Positions 2,441 through 42,572 of a DNA stretch of 47,757 nucleotides are shown piece after piece. This DNA is from a virus (lineage: Duplodnaviria; Heunggongvirae; Uroviricota; Caudoviricetes). Below the pieces are notes generated by a model. The model ran no database searches, had not been told where the DNA came from, and was given only the letters and a program-made list of their open reading frames with translations. How positions within the stretch are numbered: the stretch's first letter is position 1; every line of letters starts with the position of its first letter. Both the position numbers and the translations under genes were made by a program. The stretch is from the IMG/VR virus record IMGVR_UViG_2529292906_000010; one strand, written 5' to 3'.

Positions 2441-2441
2441 T

Positions 2442-3290: not shown

Positions 3291-3299
3291 CCCACCTGA

Positions 3300-3550: not shown

Positions 3551-3828
3551 CCTGTGAATATGTTCGCCCTTGCAGCGAGCTAAAGCTCGCGCCGGTTCGA
3601 GTCGCTACGCTCAAATATACCTCCTCCGGCACTTGCCGGAGGCATGGAGCAGCCTGATCATCCTTTTCGAAACGGCGCGTTTCGAACTATACAAAATCAA
3701 TTTATATAAGGCCGAAATAAGGCCTACGGCCGGGCTTTGCAGGAGGAAGGGACGGACCTTATCAATAAACGTCGATAAATACGCACACAGTAGCAATCAG
3801 AACGCGACAAAACGTAAGAAACATCCTT

Positions 3829-3894
3829 TTCTATTAGACATAGAAAACTTGTCTTATACGCAATGTAGTAAATTTCTATTGCCACATAGGAAAA
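3829..3894. promoter_or_regulatory. two TTCTAT-N-ATAGAA palindromes upstream of HTH gene
   Basis: TTCTATTAGACATAGAAAA (3829-3847) and TTCTATTGCCACATAGGAAAA (3873-3894). Confidence 0.3.
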
Positions 3895-3921
3895 GATTTC
3901 CTACCATCGTAGATATAATAA

Positions 3922-4221
3922 ATGGAGATGGTTATGGATAAAGATACTGTTTTAAAAATGTTGAATCCGGCTTGTTTAAAAAAAGCGGATGAATGGGAAT
4001 CTCCTACATGTGGAGAAGTTCGGGCAGTCATTGGCCTGACCGGAATGAGCGGCTCGCAGTTGGCCAAAAAACTAGGCTTAAAAGATAGTCGCAATGTTCG
4101 CAACTGGCAGATGTTAAAGGAGTCCACATCCAGATCCAGCATTCCGTATGCAGCCTGGGCGCTGCTGTGTTACTTCGCTGGGTTAGGGTTAATCTTCATT
4201 GATAACAAAACAGATGTTTGA
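3922..4221 (+). CDS. helix-turn-helix DNA-binding protein
   Basis: 99-aa ORF; HTH-like segment GMSGSQLAKKLGLKDSRNVRNWQ; start may be ATG 3934. Confidence 0.5.
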   Translation: MEMVMDKDTVLKMLNPACLKKADEWESPTCGEVRAVIGLTGMSGSQLAKKLGLKDSRNVRNWQMLKESTSRSSIPYAAWALLCYFAGLGLIFIDNKTDV

Positions 4222-4508
4222 AACATGCAAATATGAGGTTTGTTATGGAACTTGTACGCAAAACACGCAAAGAGTTCTTGGACCTGTATCGCATGGGAGC
4301 TTTCACTTGTGTTGTGGCTACCCAGGACGAAGTGACAAAAAGCTGGCGGCTTTTTGCTCTCAATAAAAAAGGGATTGCCGTTTTCATTGAAAAAGCCCGT
4401 GGTGGTATCCGCGAATGGGCGGGATTGAATTATGTGGCTGATTTTTGCGCAGCTATGGGGATTCGTCGCTGGGAAGTCCATATGCCAGGAGTAAAGTCAC
4501 AAAAATAG
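4218..4508 (+). CDS. hypothetical protein
   Basis: 96-aa ORF coupled to upstream gene; true start may be ATG 4245. Confidence 0.4.
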   Translation: MKHANMRFVMELVRKTRKEFLDLYRMGAFTCVVATQDEVTKSWRLFALNKKGIAVFIEKARGGIREWAGLNYVADFCAAMGIRRWEVHMPGVKSQK

Positions 4509-4746
4509 GGCTTTCGTGTCGAAAATGAGGCGAAACTGAAAACGAGATTTCATTAACAAATAAGCAACATAAAAAACAGTGGAAAACGCCCAGGAAAACA
4601 TGATCTTTTGAGCGGATTTTTTAGATCCGACAATGAACGGTGATCCGGTGGTGCCGATAACGTCCATTATGTTAAATGGCCCCGTTTTTCTTGAAATTAT
4701 AACTCACAGGTTATATAGTTAGTGATATAAACTACAGGTTATAGGA

Positions 4747-5100
4747 TTGAGCATGTGGACGGTACTTTTTAGCCAGCGATTTGACGGCTGGCTAAATGAG
4801 CAAGAAGACGCTCTTCAGGAAAAGGTTTTGGCTGATTTGAAAAAGCTACAGGTTTACGGACCTGAGTTACCCAGGCCATATGCCGATACCGTAAAAGGTT
4901 CTCGGTACAAAAATATGAAAGAGCTTCGCGTTCAGTTTTCTGGCCGTCCGATAAGAGCCTTTTATGCGTTCGATCCGATTCGCCGGGCTATCGTTCTTTG
5001 TGCAGGAGACAAAAGTAACGATAAGCGGTTTTATAAAAAACTGGTGCGTATAGCTGAGGATGAGTTTGCAGCACATCTGAACACACTGGAGAGCAAGTAA
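4747..5100 (+). CDS. type II toxin, RelE/ParE superfamily (HigB-like)
   Basis: 117 aa; toxin-first arrangement with stop overlapping the HTH antitoxin start; probable ATG start at 4753. Confidence 0.65.
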   Translation: MSMWTVLFSQRFDGWLNEQEDALQEKVLADLKKLQVYGPELPRPYADTVKGSRYKNMKELRVQFSGRPIRAFYAFDPIRRAIVLCAGDKSNDKRFYKKLVRIAEDEFAAHLNTLESK

Positions 5101-5399
5101 TGAGAACATTAGATGAGGTGATTGCCAGCCGTTCACCGGAAAGCCAGGCGCGAATTAAAGAAATGGCAGATGAGATGATTCTTGAGGTCGGCTTGCAGAT
5201 GATGCGTGAAGAACTCCAGTTATCACAAAAGCAGGTTGCTGAGGCGATGGGTATAAGCCAGCCAGCAGTAACAAAGCTGGAGCAGCGCGGAAATGATTTA
5301 AAGCTGGCGACATTAAAGCGTTACGTTGAAGCTATGGGAGGCAAATTAAGCCTGGATGTTGAGCTTCCCACAGGAAAACGAATAGCGTTTAACATCTGA
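5100..5399 (+). CDS. HTH (XRE-family) antitoxin, HigA-like
   Basis: 99 aa; HTH segment LSQKQVAEAMGISQPAVTKLEQ; translationally coupled to upstream toxin. Confidence 0.65.
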   Translation: MRTLDEVIASRSPESQARIKEMADEMILEVGLQMMREELQLSQKQVAEAMGISQPAVTKLEQRGNDLKLATLKRYVEAMGGKLSLDVELPTGKRIAFNI

Positions 5400-5413: not shown

Positions 5414-5441
5414 AAGCCCCTGTTGCAAAGGGGCTTTTTTG
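5414..5441 (+). terminator. rho-independent terminator
   Basis: AGCCCCT-N-AGGGGCT stem followed by TTTTTT. Confidence 0.6.
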
Positions 5442-5450
5442 TGCTCATGG

Positions 5451-5562
5451 AATTATATAATTATAGATTTATATAAAAAGTGCTTTACAGGTGGGAAAAT
5501 ATTTCCTAGTGTTATACCCGAAACCGAGCGATACCCGCCCTGGTTAAACCGGAGATAACCCG
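5451..5562 (+). promoter_or_regulatory. conserved promoter-leader element, copy A
   Basis: Near-identical to 14348-14464 and 22011-22122; contains TATAATTATA palindrome, TTTACA (-35-like), GGGAAAA(A/T)ATTTCC, conserved leader and GGAGA RBS. Confidence 0.5.
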
Positions 5563-5943
5563 ATGAGCATGATTAAAATCCGCAAAAACGCTTTCCTTAA
5601 AATTCAAACTATCCTGGCTGGTTCTGTTGGCGTGATTTGCCGTTCTTCTTCAAGCCGCATCGATGACGGCTACGATGATGAGTATCGTGTGTCCTCGTGC
5701 GATGAGGCTTTAACCTGGCTGAAGGAGAATCAGGAACGTGCCCAGGTATATCTGGAAACAGAGAACGGCAATCAGATGCTGCGTATTAGCGGTCGTTATG
5801 GATTTGAAACTACATTCATTGCCTATTTTAATCAGGTTTACTTTGACAAGGAGCTGGCCTGGTACACTGATCGCATGAGCAAAAGCGAGCCAGCTCCGAT
5901 TACACCGCCGAACAATAAACCATTTTTATTCCTCGTTAAGTAA
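5563..5943 (+). CDS. hypothetical protein
   Basis: 126-aa ORF immediately after leader copy A. Confidence 0.5.
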   Translation: MSMIKIRKNAFLKIQTILAGSVGVICRSSSSRIDDGYDDEYRVSSCDEALTWLKENQERAQVYLETENGNQMLRISGRYGFETTFIAYFNQVYFDKELAWYTDRMSKSEPAPITPPNNKPFLFLVK

Positions 5944-6354: not shown

Positions 6355-7086
6355 GTCTGAAATTTAAATCTTGCTTGGTAGGCTGGATTTAAAAAGACAC
6401 CTCTTGATTGGGGCGGCTTTCTTGCGTCTAAAGATAATCAAATCTTTTTGCGCCTGCAACCCCTTTTTTACTGGTGCCTGTTTCAGACTCACGCTCGCGT
6501 CGTTGTCTTTGCCACTTCGTTGGGTTCGGTGTTTTTGGACGGAGTGGCGCGCGGGTATGCGTACAAGGGGAAAGTGTGCTGACGCAAGCCAGGAACAGCG
6601 ATCTAAACTAAGTCGAGTCTGAGAAAGGCAGGAGTGCGACAACTCGCCTGTGCTCAATGAGCAGAAGAAGGTATATCAGACGACCAATGGCATGATTGTG
6701 GGCCACAGGGCGCACACGGCGGCGAAGCATTGGAAACGATGTGGAGCTATCTGGTGGCATGAGTTCCGGTACTCGATCTCGAGCTTTTTTGATGCTTTTG
6801 AGAAGGGGCCGGAACTCCGGTAAAGGGCACCCTGTATGGGGGGAGGGGGGTTGTGTCTGAAGGGTGGCTATCGGTTATGGTGGAATTATGATGCGTAGAA
6901 AAGCAAGTTTGCTGCAAGCTATTGGGTCCATTATTTCTTTGTTTCCGGCAGTTGATCATTTTCGTCATATGGCGACACGTTCGAGTATGGGCTTGGTGCG
7001 TGACGCTGACGCTATTCGAAAGGATTTTCAGAAAGTCTCTGGTGTTGATAAGAGAGAAAAGAGTAAGGGGCCGTAGCCCCTTGTAG

Positions 7087-8229
7087 TTATGGTCTGCTTT
7101 TCTGTGCCAGCTTATCAGCACATGTTTTTATCAGATCCTGTAGTGTCCTGGCTGGCAGGTTTGCATCCAGTACGCTGAGTATGCTGTTGTGATCTGCTTG
7201 GTCGACTACTTTGCCTGTCGGTGGTAGTAGCTTGAGCTGAGGATTCAGGTTTTCGTCAAAACTGATAAGTGCTCTGGCGTTTCTGAGCAGATCAAGAAGT
7301 AAGGCTGATATCACATCATCTTTAGTCATTGTTGGTAGATTTAGTGCCGCTTTAGTTTTCTCCGTCGCCTTGTCAAACTCTTTGATTAGTGTCTTGCGGT
7401 AGTTTGGTTCCGTTAATAGCCGATGATGTTCTGTTGCCGTTCGGATAATCTTTGTTTCCTGATACAGTCGGTTGTATAGCATTCGCTCGTATTCTGCCTT
7501 TAACACGCTGCTGATAGCGTTAAAGGCTTCAATGTAGGCCAGCTTGATATCCTTCACGCCTGGACCGTCGATACTTTCCATGAGCAAGGTAAATCCGTCT
7601 TTTGTCATGCGATAGATTGTTATTTCGCGGTCGCTTCCTTCCAGCGGTCGTTGTTCTTTAAAGAAGTGACGCGCCGCAGCCGTGCGAGGAATGCGTAACG
7701 CATCGATGGCCATAACGATGGAATTGTTTGTGGTGCTGAATGCTTGGGCAACATCGGCTGAGGTTGTGAGTGGCTCGTTGTTGCACACCTTAACGTAATA
7801 CATTGGTTTAGCGTTGAGCGTATCGACAACCTCACGAGCATTGTTTGGTGAGACGGTTACGGTCGCGGCCGTTTGCGCGTTCTGGTTGAAGTAGCAGTCT
7901 TCCAGCCGTTCGAATACATCCCATGCCTGATCGGTTTCGAGCATTTTAGCGTGACGTGCAGCCCCGCGTTCGGTCCAGAGGATGAGCTTTCTAACGTTAT
8001 TCGCGATGGTTTGAAAATCTCTTAAAGAGATTTTCAAACTTTGGAGATCTGTACCTTTTACAACTATGAAATGTTTTCCTTCTGTAAACCGGGACTTATT
8101 ACGGTGGTGATTTCTGTGAAGACATTCGACGCTACAGCCATATAGTTTGGCAAGCAGCTCCGTGGTGATAACGGGGAGCTGCTTATGCAGGATAGGCTGT
8201 AGGGTGTTAACGGTCGGAAGCGTTTTCAT
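7087..8229 (-). CDS. phage antirepressor (ORF6N/Rha-like N-terminus)
   Basis: 380 aa; N-terminal region resembles ORF6N/Rha antirepressor domains as recalled. Confidence 0.65.
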   Translation of the reverse strand: MKTLPTVNTLQPILHKQLPVITTELLAKLYGCSVECLHRNHHRNKSRFTEGKHFIVVKGTDLQSLKISLRDFQTIANNVRKLILWTERGAARHAKMLETDQAWDVFERLEDCYFNQNAQTAATVTVSPNNAREVVDTLNAKPMYYVKVCNNEPLTTSADVAQAFSTTNNSIVMAIDALRIPRTAAARHFFKEQRPLEGSDREITIYRMTKDGFTLLMESIDGPGVKDIKLAYIEAFNAISSVLKAEYERMLYNRLYQETKIIRTATEHHRLLTEPNYRKTLIKEFDKATEKTKAALNLPTMTKDDVISALLLDLLRNARALISFDENLNPQLKLLPPTGKVVDQADHNSILSVLDANLPARTLQDLIKTCADKLAQKSRP

Positions 8230-8417: not shown

Positions 8418-8582
8418 TGTGATGATTCCCTTAAAGGTTAAGGATACTCACCACCGTCAGGTTCCAATCATTGGGTGGTGAGACGTGCAGGGTTGGAACT
8501 ACCGGACACAATGACGAACCGGCGAGTCTTACGACTCCCCCGCACGCCCCACCATAATTTGGGTGTAGCAGTGCTTTACGCA

Positions 8583-8690
8583 TAAAAAAACCGCTAACGC
8601 GGTATGCGCCATTGTGTCTACGGGGTTCCAATCCCGACCGTAGATTTTGCTACGGCTCGGAAAGTGTCCACCAATGGCGCATTCATGTCA
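8583..8690 (-). ncRNA. candidate structured small RNA upstream of antirepressor operon
   Basis: Minus-strand hairpins (GCGCCATTG/CAATGGCGC; TCTACGG/CCGTAGA) ending in CCGCGTTAGCGG + T7 terminator at 8583-8605; no ORF. Confidence 0.25.
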
Positions 8691-9173
8691 ATACGGCGGG
8701 ATTTTAACAGAGACAACCACATAGCGTGGGTTTATTGGTAGGCAGAAACAAAAAAACCGCCCTATTGAGGACGGTTCTTTCGTGCTGATCGGATTCGCGG
8801 TCCTTTCAGCATTACGTTGTTGTATAAACAACCACGCAAGCACAAGCAGCAAGTTAATTTTACCCAAAAGGTAATAATAGTCCACTATTATGCTTCAAAA
8901 AATTGTGGTTCTTGTTGTGCCTGCAAACTCACAGATTGTGGGTAGGTTACTGATTTTGTGAAAATAAACGAGTTTTTTCGTTTAATTTCTTTCCTATTAC
9001 TAATCTTAAAATAATCGTAAAATACCTGTGGACCTTCCCGCCGATTCGCACCCGGGCACCGACTTTAGGGGAGGATTCTCCGTTGCCGTACATGCAAGCA
9101 CAAGCAGCCGTGCTTGCTCTCGCGTTGTTTTCGTCGGTGGGGATGCCGTGAAACGGCCTGTAAGGGCCATACA

Positions 9174-9296
9174 ATGAAAAAATACTGTATGTGTATTTTT
9201 ATCGTTGTTACTGGAGCTTTGTTTACGCCACATGGGGAGGGTTGGAAGATTACTGATAACGCTCTGAATGTGACGATAAACATTAGCAGCAAGTAG
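9174..9296 (+). CDS. small hydrophobic protein (40 aa)
   Basis: MKKYCMCIFIVVTGALFT... with AAGGG RBS; followed by terminator at 9302-9325. Confidence 0.3.
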   Translation: MKKYCMCIFIVVTGALFTPHGEGWKITDNALNVTINISSK

Positions 9297-9301
9297 CGAT
9301 T

Positions 9302-9325
9302 AGGCCCCTTCGGGGGCCTTTTTTA
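9302..9325. terminator. hairpin terminator
   Basis: AGGCCCC-TTCG-GGGGCCT followed by TTTTTT. Confidence 0.6.
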
Positions 9326-11807: not shown

Positions 11808-11929
11808 TTACCACATTTAGTGGTTTTCACACGGTAAGACGAGAGGTAGACCACAAATAGAAGGTTATTTTTGTTTCCCCATTGAAAAACTCACGATTTG
11901 TGGTTTTAATACCACATATCGTGGTTTAA
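11808..11929. promoter_or_regulatory. immunity operator/promoter region (OR-like) between repressor and Cro-like gene
   Basis: Palindromes ACCACATTTAGTGGT (11810-11824) and ACCACATATCGTGGT (11911-11925) plus half-sites at 11850 and 11891; TTGAAA -35-like at 11882. Confidence 0.5.
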
Positions 11930-14347: not shown

Positions 14348-14464
14348 ATCTATAAATATATAATTATAGATTTATATAAAAAGTGCTTTACAGGTGGGAA
14401 AAAATTTCCTAAGGTTATACCCAAAACCGAGCGATACCCGCCCTGGTTAAACCGGAGAAATCTG
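14348..14464 (+). promoter_or_regulatory. conserved promoter-leader element, copy B
   Basis: Near-identical to copies A and C; TATAATTATA core at 14359-14368. Confidence 0.5.
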
Positions 14465-15532
14465 ATGAATAAACAAGTAATTATTTCTGACTGGATCAAC
14501 AACCCTAACAGCCTGTTGAGCACTGATACTGGCTATAGATTACGTCATGTTAATGGCCGTATGGTCAAAAGCGATGAGCACGAAACCTTTTTCGTTGTTG
14601 AAGACGATGGACGTCTTTATGAGGATGGTCACTCTTATGAATCCCAAACAGGTTGTATCCCTGCAGAGTTGGTAGACGTAACAGAAAAGCTGCGCAAAGC
14701 ATGGCTTGAACAGCAGCAGCGCGGAGATGATTACGTAAATACCTATCAGGAACGCCAGAACGCGCGTCTTGCCCGATATATTGCTCGTGCAGAAAAAGCC
14801 AGAAAAGAAGGTGCGGTGGCGCATAAGCGAGCGCATGAACTGTTGGATGTGATCCCGTTAGGCCAGCCGATTTTAGTTGACCATTATAGCGCGAAAGGCC
14901 ATCGCCGCCGTTTGTCTAAAGCTGATGCGTTATTCAGAAAATCGTTTGTTGAGTGTGAAAGCAGAGCATCGTACTACGAAAGCAAAGCCGCAGGTGTCGG
15001 CCGTAATGGAGTTTCGTCTGATGATCCTGATGCGCTATTTAAGTTGCTTCGTAAGCTGCAAGGCTGCATGAAGTCACACATCAAAATGAAGGCCGCAAAT
15101 AAGGCTATTCGCAAATACAAAAAAGACCAATTACAGCAGCTTTCCGCATTAATTGACCTTGAGTTTACTGAAAGCGAAGCCAAAGGGTTACTCGCCGGAG
15201 ATTTCTGTGGGCACATTGGCTTCCCTTCATACTCACTGAGTAACAATAATGCCGAAATCAAACGACTACAGAGCCGTATTAAGGAGCTTGAATCGGTCAA
15301 GTCTGTAACAGGAGCACAGCGCGAAGAATACGACGGCTTTTCTATGGAGATAGATCCAGAGGATAACCGTATCCTGTTTTATTTCCCTGGCAAACCAGAG
15401 GCAAACATTCGTTCGCTGCTTAAATCACGCGCCTTTAAGTGGAGTCCAACCCGTAATGCATGGGTTCGCAAGATTACTCCAAACGCCCTGGCTGATGCCC
15501 GATATCTGAAAGAATCGCTATTGAAAGCCTGA
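14465..15532 (+). CDS. hypothetical protein (356 aa)
   Basis: Starts at ATG 14465 after GGAGA RBS; the longer ORF from 14315 would read through the leader. Confidence 0.6.
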   Translation: MNKQVIISDWINNPNSLLSTDTGYRLRHVNGRMVKSDEHETFFVVEDDGRLYEDGHSYESQTGCIPAELVDVTEKLRKAWLEQQQRGDDYVNTYQERQNARLARYIARAEKARKEGAVAHKRAHELLDVIPLGQPILVDHYSAKGHRRRLSKADALFRKSFVECESRASYYESKAAGVGRNGVSSDDPDALFKLLRKLQGCMKSHIKMKAANKAIRKYKKDQLQQLSALIDLEFTESEAKGLLAGDFCGHIGFPSYSLSNNNAEIKRLQSRIKELESVKSVTGAQREEYDGFSMEIDPEDNRILFYFPGKPEANIRSLLKSRAFKWSPTRNAWVRKITPNALADARYLKESLLKA

Positions 15533-18889: not shown

Positions 18890-19264
18890 GCTGTAGTGAG
18901 AATCCATGCGCTTACGAGCAGTATTCAGAGCGGGTAATGAAGCACATACAACCGAAAACATGGCAGAAACTGGACTCTATGGGAGTTAAGTTGGAGAAGA
19001 TTACTCAACTTAAGCAGTGGCATATCGGCGAATATTATGGAAGTCTTGGCCGGGATGTTCGTTTGGCAAAAAGTTGAGTATTGTTTTTTATTGATTGATT
19101 AACCACGATTTGAAGGTTTTTTATGGGAAAACCTTGTTTTAGGTGGTAACTGGGTGTAGTGTTTCATTTAACGTAGTAAAACTGCGTTAAGCGATTACCG
19201 CGTAATTTGTTGCTTTATGAAGCCCTGCCTTTTCGGTGGGGCTTTTTTTTTAACGAGGATTTCA

Positions 19265-21039: not shown

Positions 21040-21115
21040 GGCCCCTTAGCTTAGTGGTTAGAGCAGGCGACTCATAATCGCACGGTCATCGGTTCAAATC
21101 CGGTAGGGGCCACCA
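21040..21115 (+). tRNA. tRNA with CAU anticodon (Met or Ile2/lysidine type)
   Basis: 76-nt cloverleaf: acceptor GGCCCCT/AGGGGCC, anticodon loop CTCATAA, T-loop GGTTCAAATCC, 3' CCA; recalled as close to E. coli tRNA-Ile2. Confidence 0.8.
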
Positions 21116-21423: not shown

Positions 21424-22011
21424 ATGGAGGCAATTGCATTGTTTAATCTGATTTATGCAGATCCCCCCTGGGAATACAAAGATAAGTGTAAGGATGGGAA
21501 TCGTGGAGCTGGTTTTAAGTATCCAACGATGAAAGCTGAGGATATTGCTCGTATTCCTGTCTGGCAGCTTGCTAATCCTGAATCGTGTTTGTTGGCCATG
21601 TGGTGGGTTCCGACTCAGCCAGAAGAAGCGTTGCTGGTGGTGAAAGCATGGGGATTCAGGCTTATGACCATGAAGGGCTTCACATGGAACAAATGTGGTA
21701 GCCGACAACCAGATAAGCTGGTGATGGGGATGGGGCATATGACTCGTGCAAACAGTGAAGATTGCTTGTTTGCGGTAAAAGGCAAATTGCCGACCCGCCT
21801 TGATGCGGGGATCATTCAGTCGTTTACATCGCCTCGTCTGGAGCATTCTCGGAAGCCTGATGTGGTTCGTGACAAGCTGGTAAGGCTGTTAGGTGATGTT
21901 CCTCGTATTGAGCTGTTTGCTCGCGGTGATTTACCTGATGGTTGGCATGGCTGGGGCAACCAGTGCAATGGAGGTATCCAGTTGCATGATGCTCTCTGGC
22001 AAGTGGCATAG
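21424..22011 (+). CDS. orphan N6-adenine DNA methyltransferase, MT-A70 family
   Basis: DPPW motif (IYADPPWEY) near N-terminus; no adjacent restriction endonuclease. Confidence 0.75.
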   Translation: MEAIALFNLIYADPPWEYKDKCKDGNRGAGFKYPTMKAEDIARIPVWQLANPESCLLAMWWVPTQPEEALLVVKAWGFRLMTMKGFTWNKCGSRQPDKLVMGMGHMTRANSEDCLFAVKGKLPTRLDAGIIQSFTSPRLEHSRKPDVVRDKLVRLLGDVPRIELFARGDLPDGWHGWGNQCNGGIQLHDALWQVA

Positions 22012-22122
22012 AATTATATAATTATAGATTTATATAAAAAGTGCTTTACAGGTGGGAAAAAATTTCCTAAGGTTATACCCGAAACCGAGCGATACCCGCC
22101 CTGGTTAAACCGGAGAAATCTG
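22011..22122 (+). promoter_or_regulatory. conserved promoter-leader element, copy C
   Basis: Near-identical to copies A and B; core at 22017-22026. Confidence 0.5.
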
Positions 22123-22419
22123 ATGAAAGTACAAGACCGTGAAGTAGTAAAAAACCTCCTGCAATACCTGACCTCAAAAAACCTGACGGGCAGCGTTGAG
22201 TTCCGTGAAGCGTTAAAACATTTCAACGTCACTACGGTTTATCGTTGGGAAAACAAACATTCTGAAAGACCGTATGTGGTGGATGTTTTTGCGCCTGATA
22301 TTGAGTGCGGTTTTGAGCGTCATTCGTTCAAGGAGAAACATTCTGCTGATTTTTTTGTGAGGTTGTATGTGCGGCAGGAGATGATGAGTGATGCGTATTT
22401 CCTTCAAACGTGCGACTGA
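22123..22419 (+). CDS. hypothetical protein
   Basis: 98-aa ORF after leader copy C. Confidence 0.5.
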   Translation: MKVQDREVVKNLLQYLTSKNLTGSVEFREALKHFNVTTVYRWENKHSERPYVVDVFAPDIECGFERHSFKEKHSADFFVRLYVRQEMMSDAYFLQTCD

Positions 22420-30298: not shown

Positions 30299-30538
30299 AT
30301 GAACAATGAAGCATTTTCTCTGACTGAAGCCAGAGAGATGTTATCTGTCTGGCGGGAAGCATATCGCGCTATTGCTATTGGCGGTCAGTCATATAAATTT
30401 GGTACGCGGCAGTTAACTCGTGCGGATTTATCAGAAGTCAGAAAAGAGATGGATTACTGGCGTAATGAAGTAGAAAGATTATCAGCAGGTATACGCCGAG
30501 GCCCACGAATTAAACGAGTGGTGATAAGAGATTTATGA
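30299..30538 (+). CDS. head-tail joining protein (lambda gpW-like)
   Basis: 79 aa between terminase and portal; RRGP motif near C-terminus. Confidence 0.65.
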   Translation: MNNEAFSLTEAREMLSVWREAYRAIAIGGQSYKFGTRQLTRADLSEVRKEMDYWRNEVERLSAGIRRGPRIKRVVIRDL

Positions 30539-32108
30539 ATATTCTTGATCGAGTTATTGCACCGTTTTCACCTCAGAGGGCATTAAATCGAGCTTTGGCA
30601 AGAAAACGGTTAGAAGCACTTGAAGGTATTAATAACCTTGGATATTCACGTCATGGTGCAAGCACTCATAAAAAATCATTAAGGGGTTGGTTTAGTAAAG
30701 CTGGTTCTCCTGATGAGGATATTGTTAAAAATATAGATAAATTGCGTGAGCGTTCTCGTGATCTCTTCATGGGAAACCCGCTATCGGTTGGCGCAATAAA
30801 AACTATCAGGACAAACGTTGTTGGTTCCGGTTTAAAACTAAATGCGAACATTGATGCCGATTTCTTGGGGATGACGCAGGAAGAAGCGCGAGCATGGGAA
30901 AAACATGTTGAGCGTGAGTTTAGATTATGGGCTGATTCTCCAAATTGTGATGCATCAAGAATGTGTACTTTTGGACAATTGCAATCATTGGTTCAAATAT
31001 CTGCGTTAACATCTGGCGATATATTTGCTGCGCTACCAGTTATTAAGCGTAATGGTGTTATATATGATTTGTGCGTCTATTTAATTGAAGGTGATCGTGT
31101 TTGCAATCCAGAGGATCGTTTTATACCAAATCTTTACGGTGGCGTAGAGGTTGGTGAATTTAGCGAGCCTGTGGCGTACTGGGTTGCAAAACATCACCCA
31201 GCCGGGACTTCTGGTTTTGTAACCCGCAAGTGGGAACGTATTCCCGCATATGGGAGTAAAACAGGAAGAAGAAATATTCTGCATGTCATGCAGGATTTTG
31301 AAAGGCCTGGGCAACGCCGTGGCGTTCCTGTCCTTGCTCCTGTAATTGAAGCATTGAAGCAGTTAGGACGATACACCGATGCTGAATTGGTTGCTGCGGT
31401 TGTGTCAGGGATGTTTACTGTCTTTATTAAAACAGACGCTCCTGATGGACCAGTCGGTGAATCGGGTATCCCTCAGTACGAGCAGATCGATAACCATGAT
31501 GATAACACCCAAGAAATGGGGAATGGCTCCATAGTAAGTTTGGGTGAAGGTGAGTCGATAGATACAGCAAATCCCGGGCGACCAAATACGGCATTTGATG
31601 GTTTTGTTGTCGCCATATGCCGTCAAATTGGGGCTGCTTTAGAACTCCCTTACGAACTCTTGGTAAAGCATTTTACAGCAAGTTATAGCGCAAGCAGGGC
31701 CGCATTACTTGAAGCCTGGAAAATGTTCCGTATGCGACGTGACTGGATGGTTCAGTCATTTTGCCAACCGATCTATGAGGAATGGTTGGCCGAAGCCGTT
31801 GCTAAAGGTCGTGTTATTGCCCCTGGTTTTTTTATGGGCCTGAATATCGCTCTGCATGGAGTGGCGCTCAATGGTATGGCCCATCACAAGGCCAATTAGA
31901 TCCCCTTAAAGAAGTCAAAGCTGCAAAACTGCGTGTTGAGGAAACATTCTCTACCCGTGAAAAGGAAGCGGCTGAAATGTCAGGTCTTAACTGGGAAGAA
32001 ACCGCACAAATCTGTGGCAGAGAAGAGAATGCTCGCCGTGAGTTGGGGCTTATTACACCTCCTGTTTCTGAGGTAAATGAACAAAATATGGAGACTGATG
32101 ATGCCTAA
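30535..32108 (+). CDS. portal protein (lambda gpB family); frame interrupted near 31888-31897
   Basis: 454-aa ORF ends at TAG 31897-31899; the -1 frame stays open from 31806 to TAA 32106-32108 and reaches the protease start. Confidence 0.7.
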
Positions 32109-33165
32109 TTGGTGGGAAATAAAAAATAGCACGGGTGAAGATGACTCTCCGGCTGAACTTTTAATTTACGGGTATATTGGTGAATTTGATGAGGTTTCTT
32201 CTTCTGACATAGTTAATAAATTAAAGGATATTTCATCAAATACTATCAGCGTAAAAATTAATAGTTATGGTGGTTCTGTTTTTACTGCTCAAGCTATTCT
32301 TTCATCATTAAAGCGTCATAAGGCGAATATTACGGTTTATATCGACGGGATTGCTGCATCGGCTGCAACCATTATTGCAATGGCGGGTGATAAAATTATT
32401 ATCCCATCTAATGCTATGATGATGATCCATAATCCATGGACATTTGCTGCTGGCGATGCGGATGAATTGCGTGATATTGCTGAGATGATGGATAAGATAC
32501 GAAATAGTATTTTATCTGCATATAAGGAGAAAACAGGGCTTTCTGAGGATAAATTAATTGAACTAATGGATCAGGAAACATGGCTAAATGCAGAAGAGGC
32601 TGTAGAGCTTGGATTTGCTGACGAAGTTGAAAAACCTATGCGCTTATCCGCTTCTATAAAGGAAGGGATGCTTTCGCTTAATGGAATAACTTTTGAAGCA
32701 TCAAGGTTTTCAAAATTACCTGATTCACTCGCAAAGTTGCCGCAAAATAAAAATGAGTTATCTACTGAATCAAATGAACAAAATGAGGACGATATTGTGA
32801 CTCTTGATGAATTAAAAAACAAATATCCAGAATTATACAATCAGGTTTTTAATGCTGGTAAAGACGAGGGCGTTAAATCAGAACGCGAGCGCATTGAAAC
32901 AATCGAGAATAGCGTGATTCCTGGTCATGACGACCTGGTTAAGAATGCAAAATTCAAAACAGGAGTTTCTGCGGCTGACCTTGCTTTGGAAATTATGAAT
33001 GCAGAGCGAGCGCGTAACAAAAACTTTCTTAATCAACGGCAAGAAGACGCAAGTGAGGTGAATGATTCAGTTGATGTTAATCAACCAGAAAACAACGGCA
33101 ACAAACAGGCTGAAGCAGTAAAAAATGTTATTGGGTCAGTATTTAAAAACCGCGATAAAAATTAA
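32098..33165 (+). CDS. prohead protease, ClpP-like, with C-terminal scaffold-like extension
   Basis: ClpP-like motifs (NSYGGSV, GIAASAA, MMIHNPW); acidic/coiled C-terminal half. Confidence 0.8.
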   Translation: MMPNWWEIKNSTGEDDSPAELLIYGYIGEFDEVSSSDIVNKLKDISSNTISVKINSYGGSVFTAQAILSSLKRHKANITVYIDGIAASAATIIAMAGDKIIIPSNAMMMIHNPWTFAAGDADELRDIAEMMDKIRNSILSAYKEKTGLSEDKLIELMDQETWLNAEEAVELGFADEVEKPMRLSASIKEGMLSLNGITFEASRFSKLPDSLAKLPQNKNELSTESNEQNEDDIVTLDELKNKYPELYNQVFNAGKDEGVKSERERIETIENSVIPGHDDLVKNAKFKTGVSAADLALEIMNAERARNKNFLNQRQEDASEVNDSVDVNQPENNGNKQAEAVKNVIGSVFKNRDKN

Positions 33166-33174
33166 GGTGAGTTT

Positions 33175-33558
33175 ATGCGAGAGTCTTTTTCATTTGAACC
33201 AGATAATCTGATTATTTCTGGTGGTATGCCAGCAATTCCAACAAGTATTAAACTTGCCAGCGGTAAAGTAAAACGAGGTGAGTTACTTGCTTTTGTCAGT
33301 ATTGATCAGACAACAAATGTTGTCACTGTGGCTCCGATAAATCTCTCTGGAGAGGGAGTGGCAAAAGAACCGTATTGTATTGCTCAACACAGTATTGATG
33401 CGACTGATTCAGCGCAAGTAGGAACAGCATGGTTGACCGGAATGTTCAATGCACGTGCGGTTATCCTTCCTGAATCAGCAAAGGTTGCCGATGTATATCT
33501 GGCTTGCCGGAAGGTTGGAATATTCCTTAATACCGCACAACAAAATCCATCTGCATAA
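33175..33558 (+). CDS. head decoration protein (lambda gpD-like), tentative
   Basis: 127 aa between protease and major capsid gene. Confidence 0.45.
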   Translation: MRESFSFEPDNLIISGGMPAIPTSIKLASGKVKRGELLAFVSIDQTTNVVTVAPINLSGEGVAKEPYCIAQHSIDATDSAQVGTAWLTGMFNARAVILPESAKVADVYLACRKVGIFLNTAQQNPSA

Positions 33559-34622: not shown

Positions 34623-35015
34623 ATGGCCAGACTGATTAAAAACATTGATACGATAAGCCACGGCTCGCTAAAAGCGGGCCGTTTGCTTAATGGGCTAATG
34701 GATAACTCCAGAATTGCCGAACTGATTGCGTCAGGACATGCTATTGCCACCGAAGAGGATGGTGATTTGGCATCGGCTGGGGGCTATGATGCTGCTAAGT
34801 TAGCTTTTGAGCATGGATACGCATCTGCTGTTAATGATGCTGTGGACGCGGGGTTGATTACGCGAACGGAGGCGGGTAGCTGTGTATTCGAGGTTGAGTT
34901 TGAGGATGATGGCGGCAATGAGGAAACGGTTGCTGATGATTCATCTGAATCTGTAGCTACTTCTGATACCAGTAATGCGAAAAAATCAACGCAAAAAAAA
35001 GGTAATAAGAAGTAA
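34623..35015 (+). CDS. hypothetical head-associated protein
   Basis: 130 aa, acidic C-terminal tail. Confidence 0.45.
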   Translation: MARLIKNIDTISHGSLKAGRLLNGLMDNSRIAELIASGHAIATEEDGDLASAGGYDAAKLAFEHGYASAVNDAVDAGLITRTEAGSCVFEVEFEDDGGNEETVADDSSESVATSDTSNAKKSTQKKGNKK

Positions 35016-35841: not shown

Positions 35842-36132
35842 ATGGCTAATAAGAAAAGTAGTAAAGAAGATATAGAAAAGAAGGAAGATGTTGCTCAAAC
35901 ATTTGTATATATAGGACCAACAATCCCTCAACTCTCAATTTTGAAGCATAAACTATTTAAGAATGGCTTATCTCCAGAGTGTAAAAAATTAATATCACAT
36001 ATTCCTGGTGCAAAGTGTTTGTTTGTGGCAACCAGTGATTTTGCAGATGCAGAGAAAAGACTTTCTGATAAAACCAGTGTCGAGTATGTAATGTACTCTA
36101 GAGTTTCTTCTTCTATCATGGAGATTAAATAA
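35842..36132 (+). CDS. hypothetical structural-module protein
   Basis: 96-aa ORF before sheath gene. Confidence 0.4.
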   Translation: MANKKSSKEDIEKKEDVAQTFVYIGPTIPQLSILKHKLFKNGLSPECKKLISHIPGAKCLFVATSDFADAEKRLSDKTSVEYVMYSRVSSSIMEIK

Positions 36133-37595
36133 TGGGATATCGCCACGGTATTTATATATCTGAACTGGCTACATCTATAACTCCTCCAGTGCAAGTTAGT
36201 GCTGGGTTGATTGTCGCATTTGGTACGGCTCCTGTTAATCAGTTAGAAGATCCAGCCTCAGCGGTAAATAAACCTATCATTGCTTATACATACGCAGAGG
36301 CCGTATCTAAAATAGGATATAGCACAAACTTCGAGAAATATACTTTAAGCGAAGTAATTAAAGTCGCATTTGGAATATATGGTGTTGCGCCAGTTGTATT
36401 TATCAATGTGCTTGATCCAGCAAAACATAAGAAAGACGTTACTGATGAGTTAGTAAAACTTTCTGGCGGGAAAGGTACGCTCTCTAACGATGGTGTCTTA
36501 TATAAATCTGTTGTTGTGAAAAAAGCAGATGGTGATTCGCCTGGGTTAACGCTTGATACCGATTATGTGCTGGCGCTGGATGATAATGGCTATACGGTCA
36601 TTACAGCTATTAGCGGAGGAAAAATTACCGAAAAAGACGCTACTCTTAAGGTTAGTTATACGCATCTTGATCCCGGTGCCGTAACTAAAAATGACATTAT
36701 CGGTGGTGTGGATTCCAACACTAAAGCCAATACAGGGCTTGAGTTACTGTCAGATGTGTATCCCCGCTTCAAGTTAGTTCCTGGACAAGTGATTGCACCT
36801 GGATTTAGTTCTGATAGTGAAGTTGGTCAGCTAATGGCGGCTAAAGCCGCGCTGATTAGTGAATTGTTCAAAGCTGAAGCTATAACGGATGCGCCGACCG
36901 ATAAATCTACTATCAGTGATTACTCGGCTGTTCCTGAATGGAAACAGAACAATAATCACATGGCCGCTAACCAGACAGTGTGCTGGCCGATGGTGAAACT
37001 TGGTGACAATATTTACCATCACTCAACCCATTTAGCGGCCGCAACATGCTTGCTGGATAGTCAGTATGGTGATATTCCATCACGTTCTCCGTCAAATATA
37101 AAACTACAGATGGACGGTGCTGTACGTAAAGATGGCAGTGAAGTATGGCTTAACATTAGTCAGGCAAACTACTTAAATGGACAGGGGATTGTAACAAGCC
37201 TTAATTTTGATGGTTGGAAATCATGGGGAAACCGTAATGCTATTTATCCAACATCTACAGACCCCAAAGACGCATTTCGTGTTTGCCGACGTATGTTTAA
37301 CTGGGTGGGTAATACGTTAATTCTTTCGCATTGGTCAAAAATAGACAATCCTGCAAACCGTCGATTAATTGAATCGATTGTTACAAGTGCGAATATTTGG
37401 CTTAACGGCCTCACAGGTAATCAGGATATTGCAGGTGGTGTTGTTACCTTTGATCAGTCTGAAAACACGATTACGTCATTAATGGACGGGATTGTTAAAT
37501 TCCATGTAAAAATGACACCATTCTCACCTGCCAGAGATATTGAGTTCGTCATGGAATATAATCCTGATTATCTGCTGAACTTGTTTTCTGAATAA
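36132..37595 (+). CDS. tail sheath protein
   Basis: 487 aa, followed by tube gene; typical contractile-tail order. Confidence 0.85.
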   Translation: MGYRHGIYISELATSITPPVQVSAGLIVAFGTAPVNQLEDPASAVNKPIIAYTYAEAVSKIGYSTNFEKYTLSEVIKVAFGIYGVAPVVFINVLDPAKHKKDVTDELVKLSGGKGTLSNDGVLYKSVVVKKADGDSPGLTLDTDYVLALDDNGYTVITAISGGKITEKDATLKVSYTHLDPGAVTKNDIIGGVDSNTKANTGLELLSDVYPRFKLVPGQVIAPGFSSDSEVGQLMAAKAALISELFKAEAITDAPTDKSTISDYSAVPEWKQNNNHMAANQTVCWPMVKLGDNIYHHSTHLAAATCLLDSQYGDIPSRSPSNIKLQMDGAVRKDGSEVWLNISQANYLNGQGIVTSLNFDGWKSWGNRNAIYPTSTDPKDAFRVCRRMFNWVGNTLILSHWSKIDNPANRRLIESIVTSANIWLNGLTGNQDIAGGVVTFDQSENTITSLMDGIVKFHVKMTPFSPARDIEFVMEYNPDYLLNLFSE

Positions 37596-37611: not shown

Positions 37612-38133
37612 TTGAGCAATCAAATTCCTGAGAGACTTATTAACTTTACAGTATACGGTGAGGGAAACCGTATTATCGGTGTTGCTGACGCAAAGCTGCC
37701 ATCAATTGAGATGATGACAGAAACTGTTAGTGGTGCAGGTATCGCTGGAGAGCTTGAGAGCGGAACGCTGGGGCATTTCAAACCAATGACTGTCTCTCTT
37801 AAATGGCGAACTCTGACCTCTGCTGGTACAAAATTATTTCTATCCTCATCGCATCAGGTAGATTTTCGCGGTAGCCAGCAGGTTTATGATGCAGGAACAG
37901 GAAAATATAAAACGGTTCCTATTCGGGCTTCAATGAAGCTAAATCCTAAAAAACTGGATTTAGGTTCGCTACAGGTGGCAAAGGCTACTGATTCAGAGAA
38001 TGAATTTGAAGTTCTCTATATCAAATTATTTATTGATGGGAAAGAAGTCCTGGAAATTGATAAGTTGAACTTTATTTGTATCTTTGATGGTGAAGATATA
38101 TTAAAAAGCGTTCGTGATGATTTAGGTTTATAA
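37612..38133 (+). CDS. tail tube protein
   Basis: 173 aa; TTG start with AGGAGG RBS. Confidence 0.7.
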   Translation: MSNQIPERLINFTVYGEGNRIIGVADAKLPSIEMMTETVSGAGIAGELESGTLGHFKPMTVSLKWRTLTSAGTKLFLSSSHQVDFRGSQQVYDAGTGKYKTVPIRASMKLNPKKLDLGSLQVAKATDSENEFEVLYIKLFIDGKEVLEIDKLNFICIFDGEDILKSVRDDLGL

Positions 38134-38142
38134 GGTGACAAA

Positions 38143-38424
38143 ATGGAAACCGTTAAATTAAGTAAAGAATATCGTTTTGAAGACTTTGAGCCGGTGACTG
38201 AACTCAACCTTGATTTAGACAACCTAAAAGGCAGTGATATTTTAGAGGTATCGGACTTACTGCAATCTCAAGGGCATGTTTCAGTTCAAACATCACTTGA
38301 TAATAAAGTCCATGCAGCCTTGGCTGCTCGCTGTATTGGTCGTCCAATAGAGTATCTGAATGGATTACCAGCGAAAGACTTTGTTAAAGTTTGTCAAAAG
38401 GTACAGAATTTTTTGCTCTCGTAG
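38143..38424 (+). CDS. tail assembly chaperone (P2 gpE-like)
   Basis: 93 aa upstream of tape measure; ends just after slippery TTTTTTG. Confidence 0.65.
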   Translation: METVKLSKEYRFEDFEPVTELNLDLDNLKGSDILEVSDLLQSQGHVSVQTSLDNKVHAALAARCIGRPIEYLNGLPAKDFVKVCQKVQNFLLS

Positions 38425-38573
38425 GTTTTGATGAGCAAAAACCTATTGATAAGCAAATAATGAGGGCCGCGAGTTCTCTATCTCAATCATCTCAATCAAC
38501 ACCTATATCCTACTGGCTTTCGCTTCGGTTGAGGCGAATCGTCGCATGGATTGACGTGTTTAATGAGGATTAA
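38143..38573 (+). CDS. tail assembly chaperone frameshift product (E+E'-like), via -1 shift at 38409-38415
   Basis: Heptamer T TTT TTG in frame; -1 frame continues FFALVGFDEQ... to 38573. Confidence 0.5.
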
Positions 38574-38578: not shown

Positions 38579-41370
38579 ATGGCCAGCAATAAGAACTTTA
38601 AGCTGGCTTTTGAAATTGGCGGCAAAGTTGCCGCCTCTCTCCCCAAAAGTTTTACTACAGCTAATCAGGCTGTTGCTAAATTAAATGCCGAGCTTGCTGG
38701 ATTAACGAAAGAACATGGGGAAATTCAAAAGCTACAATCTGTAAAAGTAAAGGTTGGACAGACTGCCCTCGAATATCATAAAGCTGCCGCTCGCGTTGAA
38801 GAGTTACAGAAGCAAATAAAAAACACGGCCAATCCAACCAGAGCGATGCTTCGTGACTTTGAGAAGGCAAAAACACATTCATCGAATTTACGAGCATCAC
38901 TACGTTCTCAGCGTGAAGAACTGGCCGCTTTAAAGTCTGCCTATCAGGGAGCTGATACATCTGCCAGAGCTTTGGCCTCAAGAGAGAAAGAGCTTAAAGC
39001 CAGCATTGATCGTAATCGTGAGGCTCAGGCCCGTAGCGTTGAGCAGGTTAACCGCTACAGAACGGCTTTGGCTTTAGCCAGAGCAAATGTTCAGCAAGTG
39101 AAAAACAGCAGGAGGAACTTAACCGGGCATTAGAAAAACAACGTATTGATAAAATTAACAGCTATAAAAATGCGTTGGCTGAAGCACGGAAAAATGTTCT
39201 TGCAGTAAAACGTGCTCAGGAGGAGTTAAACCGCGCGTTGGAAAGGCAGCGTGAATTGAAGCGAGAGCATCTTGGTGAGGCAAAGAGTCAACTTGTAAGG
39301 ACAGGATTACAAACTGGTGCTGTAGCGGCTGGTGCATTTGCTGCTGCTAATAATGCAGCAAATTTTAATCGTGAAAACAAAATGATTGGTCTTACGGCAG
39401 ATATGAAGCCGGAGGAAGTTCAGGCGATGGGGCAAGCGATGCTTGTTACCGGGGCGGCTACCAACCAGTTTGCATCTGATATTCAGGCCGCTCAGGGTTT
39501 TCTTGTCGCTGCTGGGCAGGATTATAAAGAGGCTCAGGCGAATCTACTAACTATTGGGCGAACAGCTACAGCTACTGGCTCTGATATCCTCGATGTCTCG
39601 AAAGCATCATTTACATTAAGTGACTCATTGAAGATTGATCCATCTCAAATGAAGTCTGCAATGGGGATTCTGGTTCAGGCAGGGAAAGAGGGAAACTTTG
39701 AATTTAAAGATATGGCCAAAAATCTTCCTGTGCTTGGTGCTCAGTTCCAGGCATTAAAAATGGGAGGTAAAGAAGCCGCCGCGACGATGGGGGCAGCTTT
39801 GCAGATAGCTCGCAAAGGTGCTGCAACTTCGGATGAGGCTGCTAATAATATGAACAACTTTTTGGCGAAAATACTTTCCCCTGAAACACTAAAAAAAGCA
39901 AAGAAAAATTTCGGTGTAGATTTATATAAAATTGTCACAGCAGCGCAGAAAAAAGGGAAGAATCCATTCGAAGCTGCAATGCATTCTGTCATGAAAATGA
40001 CTAAGAACGGAGATCAGAAGTTACTTGGTGAGCTATTTGGCGATATGCAGGTTCAGAACTTTGTTCGTCCGATGATTCAAAACTGGAAGGAATACCAGAG
40101 AATCAAAGCAACATCTCTTGGAGCTGGAAGTGCTGTTATTGACCGCGATTTTGCCAACATAACGAAAGATAATGCGGAGCGATTGAAACAATTACGTATT
40201 CAGGCTAGCAATGCATCATTAAGTTTTGGTCAGGCCTTGCAACCTGCTTTAAATGCCGCGCTTAGTGTTTTGGTTCCGCTGATTACAAAAATCAGTGAAT
40301 TTGTAGCTAACAACCCCAATTTTGTTTCTCAGATTGTGATGGCGGCAGGTGCGTTTCTAACCATGAAAAGTGTGGTTATAGCGTGTAGGGTAGCTATGCT
40401 GGCTTTATCTGTAGCGACAAAGCTAACCCCTTTCGGGTGGATTCAGATGGCCATATCAGCCATTGTGGCGTTAGGTATATTGTTGTATCAGAATTGGGAT
40501 AAAATAAAAGAATGTGCATCAAAAGTTTGGCCTGCTATTAAGGATTACACTGTTAAGTCTTTTGAGACTATAAAAAACTTTATCTTAAACTTTGATCTCA
40601 ATGGATGGATTATATCTATGTTTGGTAAAGCATGGTATTATCTTTCCAACATAAACTGGAGTTCGGCAGGAGTAAGAATTTACAGTGCATTAATTAGTGC
40701 TTTTAAATGGATGTCTCCGCTTCCGTTCTTAATTAAAGCATTTAAACTTACAACAAATTACCTTTCTGGCATTAACTGGAGCGAAACAGGAAAGAAAATC
40801 ATAGATACACTGGTGTCTGTTTTTATGCGTTTTTCGCCAGTTGGACTATTTATAAGAGCATTCCAATCTGTAACGGCTTATTTATCTGGAATAAACTGGA
40901 GTGAGTCAGGTGCAAAAATAATTGAGACGTTAATCACTGGGATAAAATCAAAAGCAAATGCTTTAATTAATGAAGTGAAAGGCGTTTTTTCTTCTGTACG
41001 TGAGTATTTACCGTTCTCTGACGCGAAAAAAGGTCCATTCTCACAGCTAACAAAGTCAGGTGGTGCAATAATGACTACTCTGGCATCAGGTGTTAGCAGG
41101 AATAACAGCTTACAGAATGCAATAGCAACCAAGTTCGGGCAATCAAATTTATCACCTCACGGGATATCTGCCGCCGGGACTTCTGGACCTCGCCAGAACG
41201 TTAACGCTGTGACTGGTGGAATAACCTATTCACCTGTAATCAATCTTCCGGCTGGTTCACCAAAGGAAACTGAGGCGGCAGCTAAAAGAGCATTAGATGC
41301 GGGATATTCTGATTTTGAGAAGAAATTGAGTGCTCATATGTTCCAACAACGGAGATTAAGTTTTGGATGA
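38579..41370 (+). CDS. tail tape measure protein; frame interrupted in A5 run at 39101-39105
   Basis: Coiled-coil N-terminus continues across the apparent stop at 39131 in the -1 frame; C-terminal TM and GINWSE repeats. Confidence 0.8.
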
Positions 41371-41581
41371 TTATAGAACGGTTCAAGGGGACTCATGGGA
41401 TAGTATCGCGTTAAAGTTGTATGGTAATGAGTACCTGTCTTATCTTCTTATTGATGCTAATACTGAGCACCGCTTTACGGTGCTTTTTTCTGCGGGAATT
41501 ATTCTTAAAGTTCCTGATGCTCCGGTTATGCCAATATCAGTAAACAATTTGCCTCCGTGGAGACGCAATAGTGTTACGTAA
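41363..41581 (+). CDS. tail protein X-like (LysM-like)
   Basis: 72 aa; TTG start; DYRTVQGDSWDSIALKLYG motif. Confidence 0.45.
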   Translation: MDDYRTVQGDSWDSIALKLYGNEYLSYLLIDANTEHRFTVLFSAGIILKVPDAPVMPISVNNLPPWRRNSVT

Positions 41582-42572
41582 AACGCTTTTTGATGTTGTA
41601 TATCAGAGTGTAAATATTACCGCTCATATGTCACCTGATGTTTTGTCAATGTCTTATACAGATAATGAAGATGGTCAGGTCGATGATATTTCTATTATAT
41701 TAAAAAATGATGATGGGAAATGGTCTGGAGACTGGACACCTAAAAAGGGTGATTTTATTGATTTGAGCTTTAAGCCTATAAATCAAATCGTCCTTGAGTG
41801 TGGGAAATTCCAGGTGGATGGCATAACTTGCTCTGGACCACCTTCTGTTGTTGAGGTGACTGCTGTTTCTGTTCCTGTTTCATCAGGCATTAGACGTGAT
41901 TTAAAAAGTAATGCATGGGAAAAAACAACTCTTAAAGATATAGCGACTTCTATAGCTAAATTAGCTAACCTTGAACTGTTGTTTCTTATTGATGGTGATA
42001 GTAATCCATATTATGCGCGTGAAGATCAAATGGAGGAAAGCGATTTAAAATTTCTCCATCGACTTTGCCAGGATGAAGGGGTGTCGTTAAAGGTCACTGA
42101 TAGCCAATTAATAATATTTGCTCAAGAGATGTTTGAGCAAAAAGATCCTATCGCTACGCTTACGTTAGGTATTGATGAGATAATCAGATATAGCTTTAGC
42201 ACACAATCTACAGATTTGTATAAAAGTTGCACGTGCAAATATCGCGTACCTAAAAAAAGAAAGTCGCTTTCGTATACTTGGGTAGATCCATCCGTAGAAG
42301 AAGGGGCGAATCTTAAGATAAGAAAACTGGTAGCTAATTTAGATGAAGCAAAACGTAAGGCAAAGGCTGCTTTGCGGCTTAAAAATAGATATCAAAATAC
42401 CGGATCTTTAGTTTTGGTTGGAGACACCAGATTGGTAGCTGGTGTAACTATAAATCTGGACGGATTCGGTTCATTTTCTGGAAAATATCTTATATCGAAA
42501 GCTGTGCATTCAATTGGGGCTAGTGGTTATACCACCTCGATTGATGTCCGAAGAGTAATTAATGGGTATTAA
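41571..42572 (+). CDS. tail protein (P2 gpD-like late control D family)
   Basis: 333 aa after tape measure; GTG start. Confidence 0.65.
   Translation: MLRKTLFDVVYQSVNITAHMSPDVLSMSYTDNEDGQVDDISIILKNDDGKWSGDWTPKKGDFIDLSFKPINQIVLECGKFQVDGITCSGPPSVVEVTAVSVPVSSGIRRDLKSNAWEKTTLKDIATSIAKLANLELLFLIDGDSNPYYAREDQMEESDLKFLHRLCQDEGVSLKVTDSQLIIFAQEMFEQKDPIATLTLGIDEIIRYSFSTQSTDLYKSCTCKYRVPKKRKSLSYTWVDPSVEEGANLKIRKLVANLDEAKRKAKAALRLKNRYQNTGSLVLVGDTRLVAGVTINLDGFGSFSGKYLISKAVHSIGASGYTTSIDVRRVINGY

Follow-up and report, generated by a model that had tools for sequence, protein, structure and literature searches.

The window, by which we mean the whole 47,757-nt stretch of DNA analyzed, comprises a phage-plasmid of ~48 kb that encodes a contractile tail of the P2 type. 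Its genes include those for RepA, ParA, a Hin-like invertase, and P2-like tail proteins. Among complete E. coli genomes, relatives of the window occupy 77 places, every one on a plasmid and none chromosomal. A search of the literature for a name for this phage-plasmid family returned only the P1-like and SSU5/pHCM2-like families, both of which were rejected as the family of the window because they are different elements.

Among the tail genes, those for the sheath (positions 36132 to 37595) and the tube (37612 to 38133) are followed by a tail assembly chaperone pair (38143 to 38573, plus strand), which lies directly 5′ of the tape-measure gene and scores 25.4 bits against PF10109 (cutoff, 25). 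In this pair, a 93-aa ORF (38143 to 38424) overlaps an ORF in the −1 frame (38391 to 38573), and a slippery heptamer, T_TTT_TTG, is present at 38409 to 38415. It is here that the tail operon has its genuine programmed frameshift. The gene for the tail tape-measure protein (38579 to 41370, plus strand) occupies two frames as deposited and is identified by PF10145, TIGR01760, and the 2793-nt coding sequence of its relatives. It sits where a tape-measure gene is expected, 3′ of the tube and chaperone genes and 5′ of a gpD-like gene (41571 to 42572) and the baseplate genes, which are farther 3′.

The deposited gene begins with an ORF of 184 aa (38579 to 39133, plus strand), which encodes a coiled-coil N-terminal fragment and ends at an out-of-frame TAG codon (39131 to 39133). 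The C-terminal end of this fragment reads ...QQVKNSRRNLTGH (also written ...ANVQQVKNSRRNLTGH). The frame −1 to it is open from 39052, reads ...SEKQQEELNRALEKQRIDKINSYKNALAEARKNVLAVKRAQEELNRALERQR..., and runs on to 41370, so that the rest of the tape-measure protein, ~750 codons, is encoded at 39052 to 41370 on the plus strand. The frame breaks at a run of five A residues (A5; 39101 to 39105) within GTGAAAAACAG, a sequence found as a single copy in the window, at 39098 to 39108. When one A is inserted after 39105, a single ORF of 2793 nt results, encoding 930 aa, and the junction of the restored protein reads ...ANVQQVKKQQEELNRALEKQR.... A first-pass annotation, made from the sequence alone, had described this split with coordinates that proved exact throughout (the ORF ends, the TAG codon, the −1 frame open from 39052, and the position of GTGAAAAACAG), and had correctly anticipated that one extra A would fuse the two ORFs.

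The ORF at 38579 to 39133 and the 731-aa ORF that follows are the two parts of a single tape-measure gene. Their juxtaposition is not a matter of chance, as the fused 930-aa protein differs at only 2 of 930 residues from that of its nearest relative, pE200086_49, and passes the curated thresholds of both PF10145 (PhageMin_Tail; 75 bits, cutoff 33.2) and TIGR01760 (61.5 bits, cutoff 28.8). The 731-aa ORF ends at 41370, and its first listed start is the TTG codon at 39175, before which there is no Shine-Dalgarno sequence. The start chosen by the GenBank caller, TTG 39238, is 14 nt past an AGGAGG, which in intact relatives is ordinary coding sequence (codons for QEEL). The downstream ORF has no credible start of its own.

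The A run falls within an additional coiled-coil repeat unit of 36 aa (LALARANVQQVKKQQEELNRALEKQRIDKINSYKNA), encoded at 39068 to 39174 on the plus strand and visible in columns 164 to 199 of the protein alignment, although its boundaries are arbitrary within the repeat. This unit corresponds to the coiled-coil repetition that the first reading had picked out at the split. The duplication was visible at the protein level only; TRF found no DNA-level tandem repeat that might provide a larger slippage unit. The 36-aa unit is absent from the 815- to 835-aa homologs of Salmonella, Citrobacter, Klebsiella, and Yersinia, and the family of the window also differs from these enterobacterial homologs in having extra C-terminal INWS-type repeats. 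With P2-like contractile-tail tape-measure proteins in general, it shares the gene order after the sheath, the tube, and a frameshifted chaperone pair, a long helical N terminus, and scores above threshold for both HMMs. What distinguishes the deposited copy in the window from P2-like tape-measure genes is that its frame is broken.

Comparison with relatives was informative as to which length of the A run is the usual one. The tape-measure gene is split in the deposited sequence, but it is one long ORF after the addition of one A, and also in every clean relative, where alignment, gap list, and private-indel test all give six A residues (A6) in place of the five at 39101 to 39105. Five related phage genomes align with the window at 97.7 to 98.0% identity over 3.3 kb, with a span of 3302 nt compared to 3301 nt in the window. 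All five carry A6 and one 2793-nt tape-measure frame, and A6 versus A5 is the only length difference in the alignment. The Yersinia phages vB_YpM_39 and vB_YpM_41 and the Escherichia phage vB_EcoM-613R2 each have one 2793-nt tape-measure coding sequence. For three of the five phages, the recorded host is Yersinia pestis EV76-CN.

Plasmid collections gave the same picture. Complete E. coli genomes in RefSeq held 71 matching records, all of them plasmids, and among the matches listed the span was 2793 nt, versus 2792 nt in the window, with the exception of the error-ridden NZ_CP037450.1. In PLSDB, 59 plasmids matched; among the matches listed, the block from the portal gene to the tape-measure gene spanned 10903 nt, versus 10901 nt in the window, and the listed plasmids therefore carry both of the bases that the window lacks, one in each of these genes. 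Distant homologs in Salmonella, Citrobacter, Klebsiella, and Yersinia (815 to 835 aa, 52 to 66% identity, 100% query coverage) were single ORFs as well, and no split tape-measure gene was found among homologs down to 52% identity. The first-pass annotation had called for a comparison with homologs and had named a separate, independently initiated upstream gene in homologous phages as the finding that would speak against its reading. The comparison returned A6 and a single ORF in the relatives, and the search for such an upstream gene found it absent, with homologs single-ORF to 52% identity.

An exact search with the 36-mer carrying A5 drew no matches from contig collections of viruses, genomes, and metagenomes; with A6 in its place, the 36-mer matched five viral contigs. 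An exact match to the 184-aa protein led to assembly GCA_000249595.2, contig AIFV01000057.1, of E. coli DEC6A, and the protein is in GenBank as EHV48165.1 (E. coli DEC6A). This contig belongs to a 2012-era draft assembly. Outside it, the stub was encountered in run-assemblies that all display generalized homopolymer loss (see below). We therefore rejected A5 as a shared natural variant, on the grounds of these run-assemblies and of the missing 36-mer matches.

The tape-measure gene is not the only broken gene in the window. The portal gene (PF05136; 30535 to 32108, plus strand) is frame-broken at a run of seven T residues (T7; 31827 to 31833, plus strand), where relatives have eight (T8) by gap list and private-indel test, and the portal protein is split into 454 aa and a remainder. 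One added T restores a portal protein of 524 aa, 3 residues off the portal protein of the ATCC 25922 plasmid. The portal case cited alongside the tape-measure split in the first-pass annotation is thus borne out. Over the structural block (23761 to 46620), the window is collinear with pE200086_49 at 99.45% identity, and the only two gaps are these two coding lesions.

As private indels of the window, we counted those by which it differs from every one of six clean full-length relatives (L004, L005, and L012 to L015). There were five such indels, and each is a 1-nt contraction of a homopolymer of 5 or more bases; no expansions and no indels of any other type were found. In addition to the tape-measure and portal sites, they comprise three intergenic contractions on the plus strand: G6, compared to G7 in all six relatives, at 6845 to 6850; T5, compared to T6, at 11868 to 11872, in the divergent region that separates the early operon from the XRE repressor gene; and T6, compared to T7, at 19117 to 19122, 5′ of the holin genes. 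At the five sites, the run lengths in relatives are 6, 6, 7, 7, and 8. With each clean relative taken in turn as the focal sequence, the numbers of contractions were 0, 0, 0, 1, 0, and 1. NZ_CP037450.1 (ATCC 25922) served as a positive control and had 63 private indels, 57 of them deletions, with its tape-measure gene annotated in four pieces; in the other ATCC 25922 assembly, the plasmid is intact.

The first-pass annotation had offered two accounts of the broken genes, namely, indel errors at homopolymers and partial degradation of the element. A degraded (cryptic) prophage or phage-plasmid would be expected to show lesions of several kinds and an excess of substitutions, whereas the window shows homopolymer contractions only. 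We found no IS element, deletion, or nonsense codon in the window that would indicate decay of another kind, and the tape-measure and portal genes show no sign of relaxed constraint (2 of 930 and 3 of 524 residues, respectively). The degraded-element account is the weaker of the two, as decay beyond homopolymer contractions was not found. The homopolymer account is supported by A6 in the relatives, by five private contractions in the window compared to none or one in each relative, and by recurrence of the same lesions in error-laden run-assemblies.

This recurrence was seen in Logan, where seven run-assemblies besides AIFV01000057.1 encode a protein identical to the 184-aa stub. Six of these runs have different SNP backgrounds and are 98.0 to 99.75% identical to the window, and the seventh, SRR094143, is 100% identical. 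As the SRR094143 assembly matches the window without a mismatch over 13.7 kb, we take it to be the same sample. Both lesions, the tape-measure A5 and the portal T7, recur in it, but at 34993 to 35000 its run is A7, whereas A8 is found there in the window and in every clean relative. This disagreement indicates that homopolymer length is unstable within the data of the DEC6A sample itself. In the other six runs, the gaps relative to an intact reference are all deletions, nearly all of them 1-nt contractions of A or T runs, and many sites are shared (this tally sets aside small compensated indel clusters that are common to the window). The T8-to-T7 change in the portal gene was present in all four stub-bearing contigs that cover the site, A8 was shortened to A7 or A6 in four stub-bearing contigs, and a capsid T6, a sheath A6, and several tape-measure runs were contracted in two or three contigs each. 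That the same pair of lethal mutations should arise in independent lineages, always together with further contractions and never with expansions, is not credible biology. Recurrent contractions of this type are the signature of a systematic under-call.

Taken together, the deletion is private to the DEC6A assembly, bound to homopolymers, one-directional, and recurrent in error-laden read sets, and the split tape-measure gene is very probably a sequencing artifact caused by a homopolymer error. A run of six A residues would have been recorded as five in the DEC6A contig through an under-call by the sequencing chemistry, which was then kept in the consensus. The lost A would shift the frame by one, so that gene callers see a 184-aa stub and a C-terminal piece of 710 or 731 aa, and the same process may have shortened the four other runs in the contig, including the portal T8, while the molecule in the cell presumably carries A6. 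The error pattern suggests a platform of the 454 type, which we assume was the one used for DEC6A.

The window agrees with what is on record for such errors. For E. coli assembled from 454 data, homopolymer errors in the consensus rise exponentially with run length, and ~90% of them fall on homopolymers of 5 or more bases (PMC3045373), a pattern that the lengths of 6, 6, 7, 7, and 8 in relatives at the affected runs fit. Like known under-calls, those in the window are 1-nt errors at runs of at least 5 bases with a frequency that rises with run length, they leave adjacent ORFs in neighboring frames that match consecutive parts of one homolog, and they are private to one assembly among near-identical relatives. 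Five errors in 48 kb is a higher rate than that of well-covered 454 data (PMC3045373), but there is no difference in kind. Long-read assemblies, too, are known to suffer from homopolymer errors that fragment genes (PMC12007338).

The main observation against an artifact is that the re-assembly of SRR094143 repeats A5 and T7, as it also would if the mutations were real. If the bases were under-called, then the under-call was the majority signal in that run and not a quirk of one assembler. It is mainly because this second assembly of the same run repeats both lesions that we hold our confidence in an artifact short of certainty.

Alternatively, slipped-strand deletions in the DEC6A lineage (A6 to A5 and T8 to T7) may have been real and produced a freshly defective phage-plasmid that replicates by means of RepA and ParA and makes no virions. 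We regard this as unlikely, although more than the agreement of the two assemblies on A5 and T7 can be said for it. Replication slippage, like under-calling, favors homopolymers and rises with run length, and both lesions belong to the commonest class of spontaneous indels. Phage-plasmids can also persist as plasmids with dead structural genes, which means that selection would be slow to purge such lesions, and in the window the plasmid maintenance genes are intact, so that the structural genes would be dispensable for persistence. However, a real deletion does not account well for the rest of the data. The broken genes carry only 2 and 3 amino acid differences and are not accompanied by any IS element, deletion, or nonsense codon; each of the five private indels is a contraction, and three lie in noncoding DNA, where an account based on selection does not apply. 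The identical pair of lesions appears on backgrounds that have diverged by 1 to 2%, and always with further homopolymer contractions. The A8 run is in conflict between assemblies of the DEC6A sample, and the A5 allele is missing from all curated collections.

It is very unlikely that the split is a site of programmed recoding, in which a −1 slip on G_AAA_AAC, or stuttering of RNA polymerase, would yield a 184-aa product alongside the full-length protein. The direction needed is indeed −1, AAA_AAC has slippery codons, and the operon is already translated with recoding, given the genuine −1 frameshift 700 nt 5′ in the chaperone gene. The tape-measure site does have the operon and the direction in common with the −1 frameshifts of chaperone genes (P2 E/E+E′ and lambda G/GT), of which T_TTT_TTG at 38409 to 38415 is the real case here, but it is not a member of that class, as it lacks a canonical heptamer, a stimulatory structure, and conservation of the split. 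Its zero-frame codons are GTG AAA AAC, which places a G before AAA and gives G_AAA_AAC instead of the X_XXY_YYZ pattern. The 91 nt at 39095 to 39185 fold at −12.2 kcal/mol, which is no better than for shuffled sequences (z-score, −0.62), and the two-frame layout is kept in no relative, all of which are in frame with A6. Productive transcriptional slippage requires runs of ~8 to 9 bases, and five A residues are far too few. Both a programmed −1 frameshift and transcriptional slippage at the A run were accordingly rejected, in the absence of a canonical heptamer, a downstream structure, or a conserved split.

An equally improbable idea is that the tape-measure A6 and portal T8 tracts are contingency loci, at which frequent, reversible slippage switches a phage-plasmid population between virion-competent and plasmid-only states; were this true, the recurrent A5 and T7 calls in several read sets would be true subpopulations. 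Finally, the notion of two separate genes, in which a small coiled-coil protein precedes a shorter tape-measure protein with a start of its own, can be dismissed with near certainty even though gene callers report two products and other isolates have a 710-aa version in GenBank, for those 710-aa annotations are start-site miscalls on intact 930-aa A6 ORFs, no split homolog was found down to 52% identity, the break falls in the middle of the 36-aa repeat unit, and TTG 39175, the candidate start of an independent downstream gene, has no ribosome-binding site.

With a homopolymer under-call as the preferred explanation, the gene is almost certainly an ordinary 930-aa tail tape-measure gene, and the split is very probably not a real feature of it. 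The finding is itself an ordinary one, since the near-identical elements, which number well over 100, and the other read sets point to a homopolymer error. The GenBank and RefSeq proteins derived from the two halves, EHV48165.1/WP_001420780.1 and WP_244428446.1, probably represent pieces of a single protein. The recurrence among run-assemblies shows, moreover, that the same homopolymer under-call can arise again across independent public assemblies and in this way mimic a shared allele. As a caution, neither of the two split genes, tape-measure or portal, should be tallied as a pseudogene, read as a sign that the element is decaying, or treated as a newly found site of recoding.

The tail operon contains a genuine programmed -1 frameshift, located in the tail assembly chaperone pair (38143-38573). 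Against PF10109, the 93-aa chaperone ORF scores 25.4 bits (cutoff, 25), and its 3' end reads AAT TTT TTG CTC TCG TAG, placing T_TTT_TTG in the zero frame as the slippery site (38409-38415). An overlapping -1 ORF lengthens the product to 143 aa, a -1 extension of the chaperone product like that of P2 E/E+E'. In L022, one of the error-laden Logan contigs, the T6 of this site has become T5, so even a real slippery site can be erased by the same error process.

The split of the portal gene (30535-32108) shares its cause with that of the tape-measure gene. A T8-to-T7 contraction at 31827-31833 breaks the portal gene into 454 aa and a remainder; restoring one T yields a 524-aa protein that differs at 3 residues from its counterpart encoded on the ATCC 25922 plasmid.

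Public records of the tape-measure protein are affected by a recurrent start-site miscall. For L030 (GCA_016682475.1) and L031 (GCA_013074945.1), at locus 2341-5133, GenBank gives a 710-aa protein starting at an internal TTG and leaves the 815-nt stretch upstream without annotation, despite the presence in both of a complete 930-aa ORF with the A6 run unbroken. The protein of the window's family is itself about 112 aa longer than its 815- to 818-aa homologues from Salmonella, Citrobacter, and Yersinia. The additional residues comprise one 36-aa coiled-coil unit (aa 164-199 of the restored protein; window, ~39068-39174) and two C-terminal "INWS" modules, which occupy columns 667-746 of A2, the protein alignment with enterobacterial homologues (about aa 667-746; window, ~40580-40820). 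This longer protein may have its counterpart in a longer tail.

Compared with six clean full-length relatives, the window carries ~40 private substitutions within 1.2 kb (32325-33519), spanning the head protease/scaffold gene and the gene that follows; such substitutions are nearly absent from the flanks. The region appears to be a patch acquired by recombination from a lineage that has not been sampled.

Four Rfam matches in the window scored above the gathering score: a C4 antisense RNA (8471-8559, minus strand; 77.8 bits), isrK (8584-8656, minus strand; 67.7 bits), ryfA (9028-9324, plus strand; 142.3 bits), and a tRNA (21040-21112, plus strand). The C4/isrK pair lies just past the 5' end (8229) of a 380-aa minus-strand ORF (7087-8229). 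In relatives, the equivalents of this ORF carry annotations as ORF6N-domain proteins, which are of the antirepressor type. The position of the RNA pair suggests that the putative antirepressor is under immI-type antisense control, in an arrangement resembling that of P1 immI.

Also dispersed through the window are three near-identical copies of a leader of ~115 nt (5441-5566, 14357-14469, and 22007-22127), with the sequence TATAATTATAGATTTATATAAAAAGTGCTTTACAGGTGGGAAAAAATTTCCTAAGGTTATACCCGAAACCGAGCGATACCCGCCCTGGTTAAACCGGAGA..ATG. Each copy closes with a ribosome-binding site and an ATG start codon, which belong to a different gene in each case, and the leader is kept in relatives. The three operons appear to reuse a single promoter and 5' untranslated region, which suggests that they are coregulated.

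Finally, private single-nucleotide contractions occur in three intergenic homopolymers: G7 to G6 at 6845-6850, T6 to T5 at 11868-11872, and T7 to T6 at 19117-19122. The contraction at 11868 falls within a divergent control region, flanked by the XRE repressor gene on one side and the early operon on the other; if real, it would alter the spacing there.
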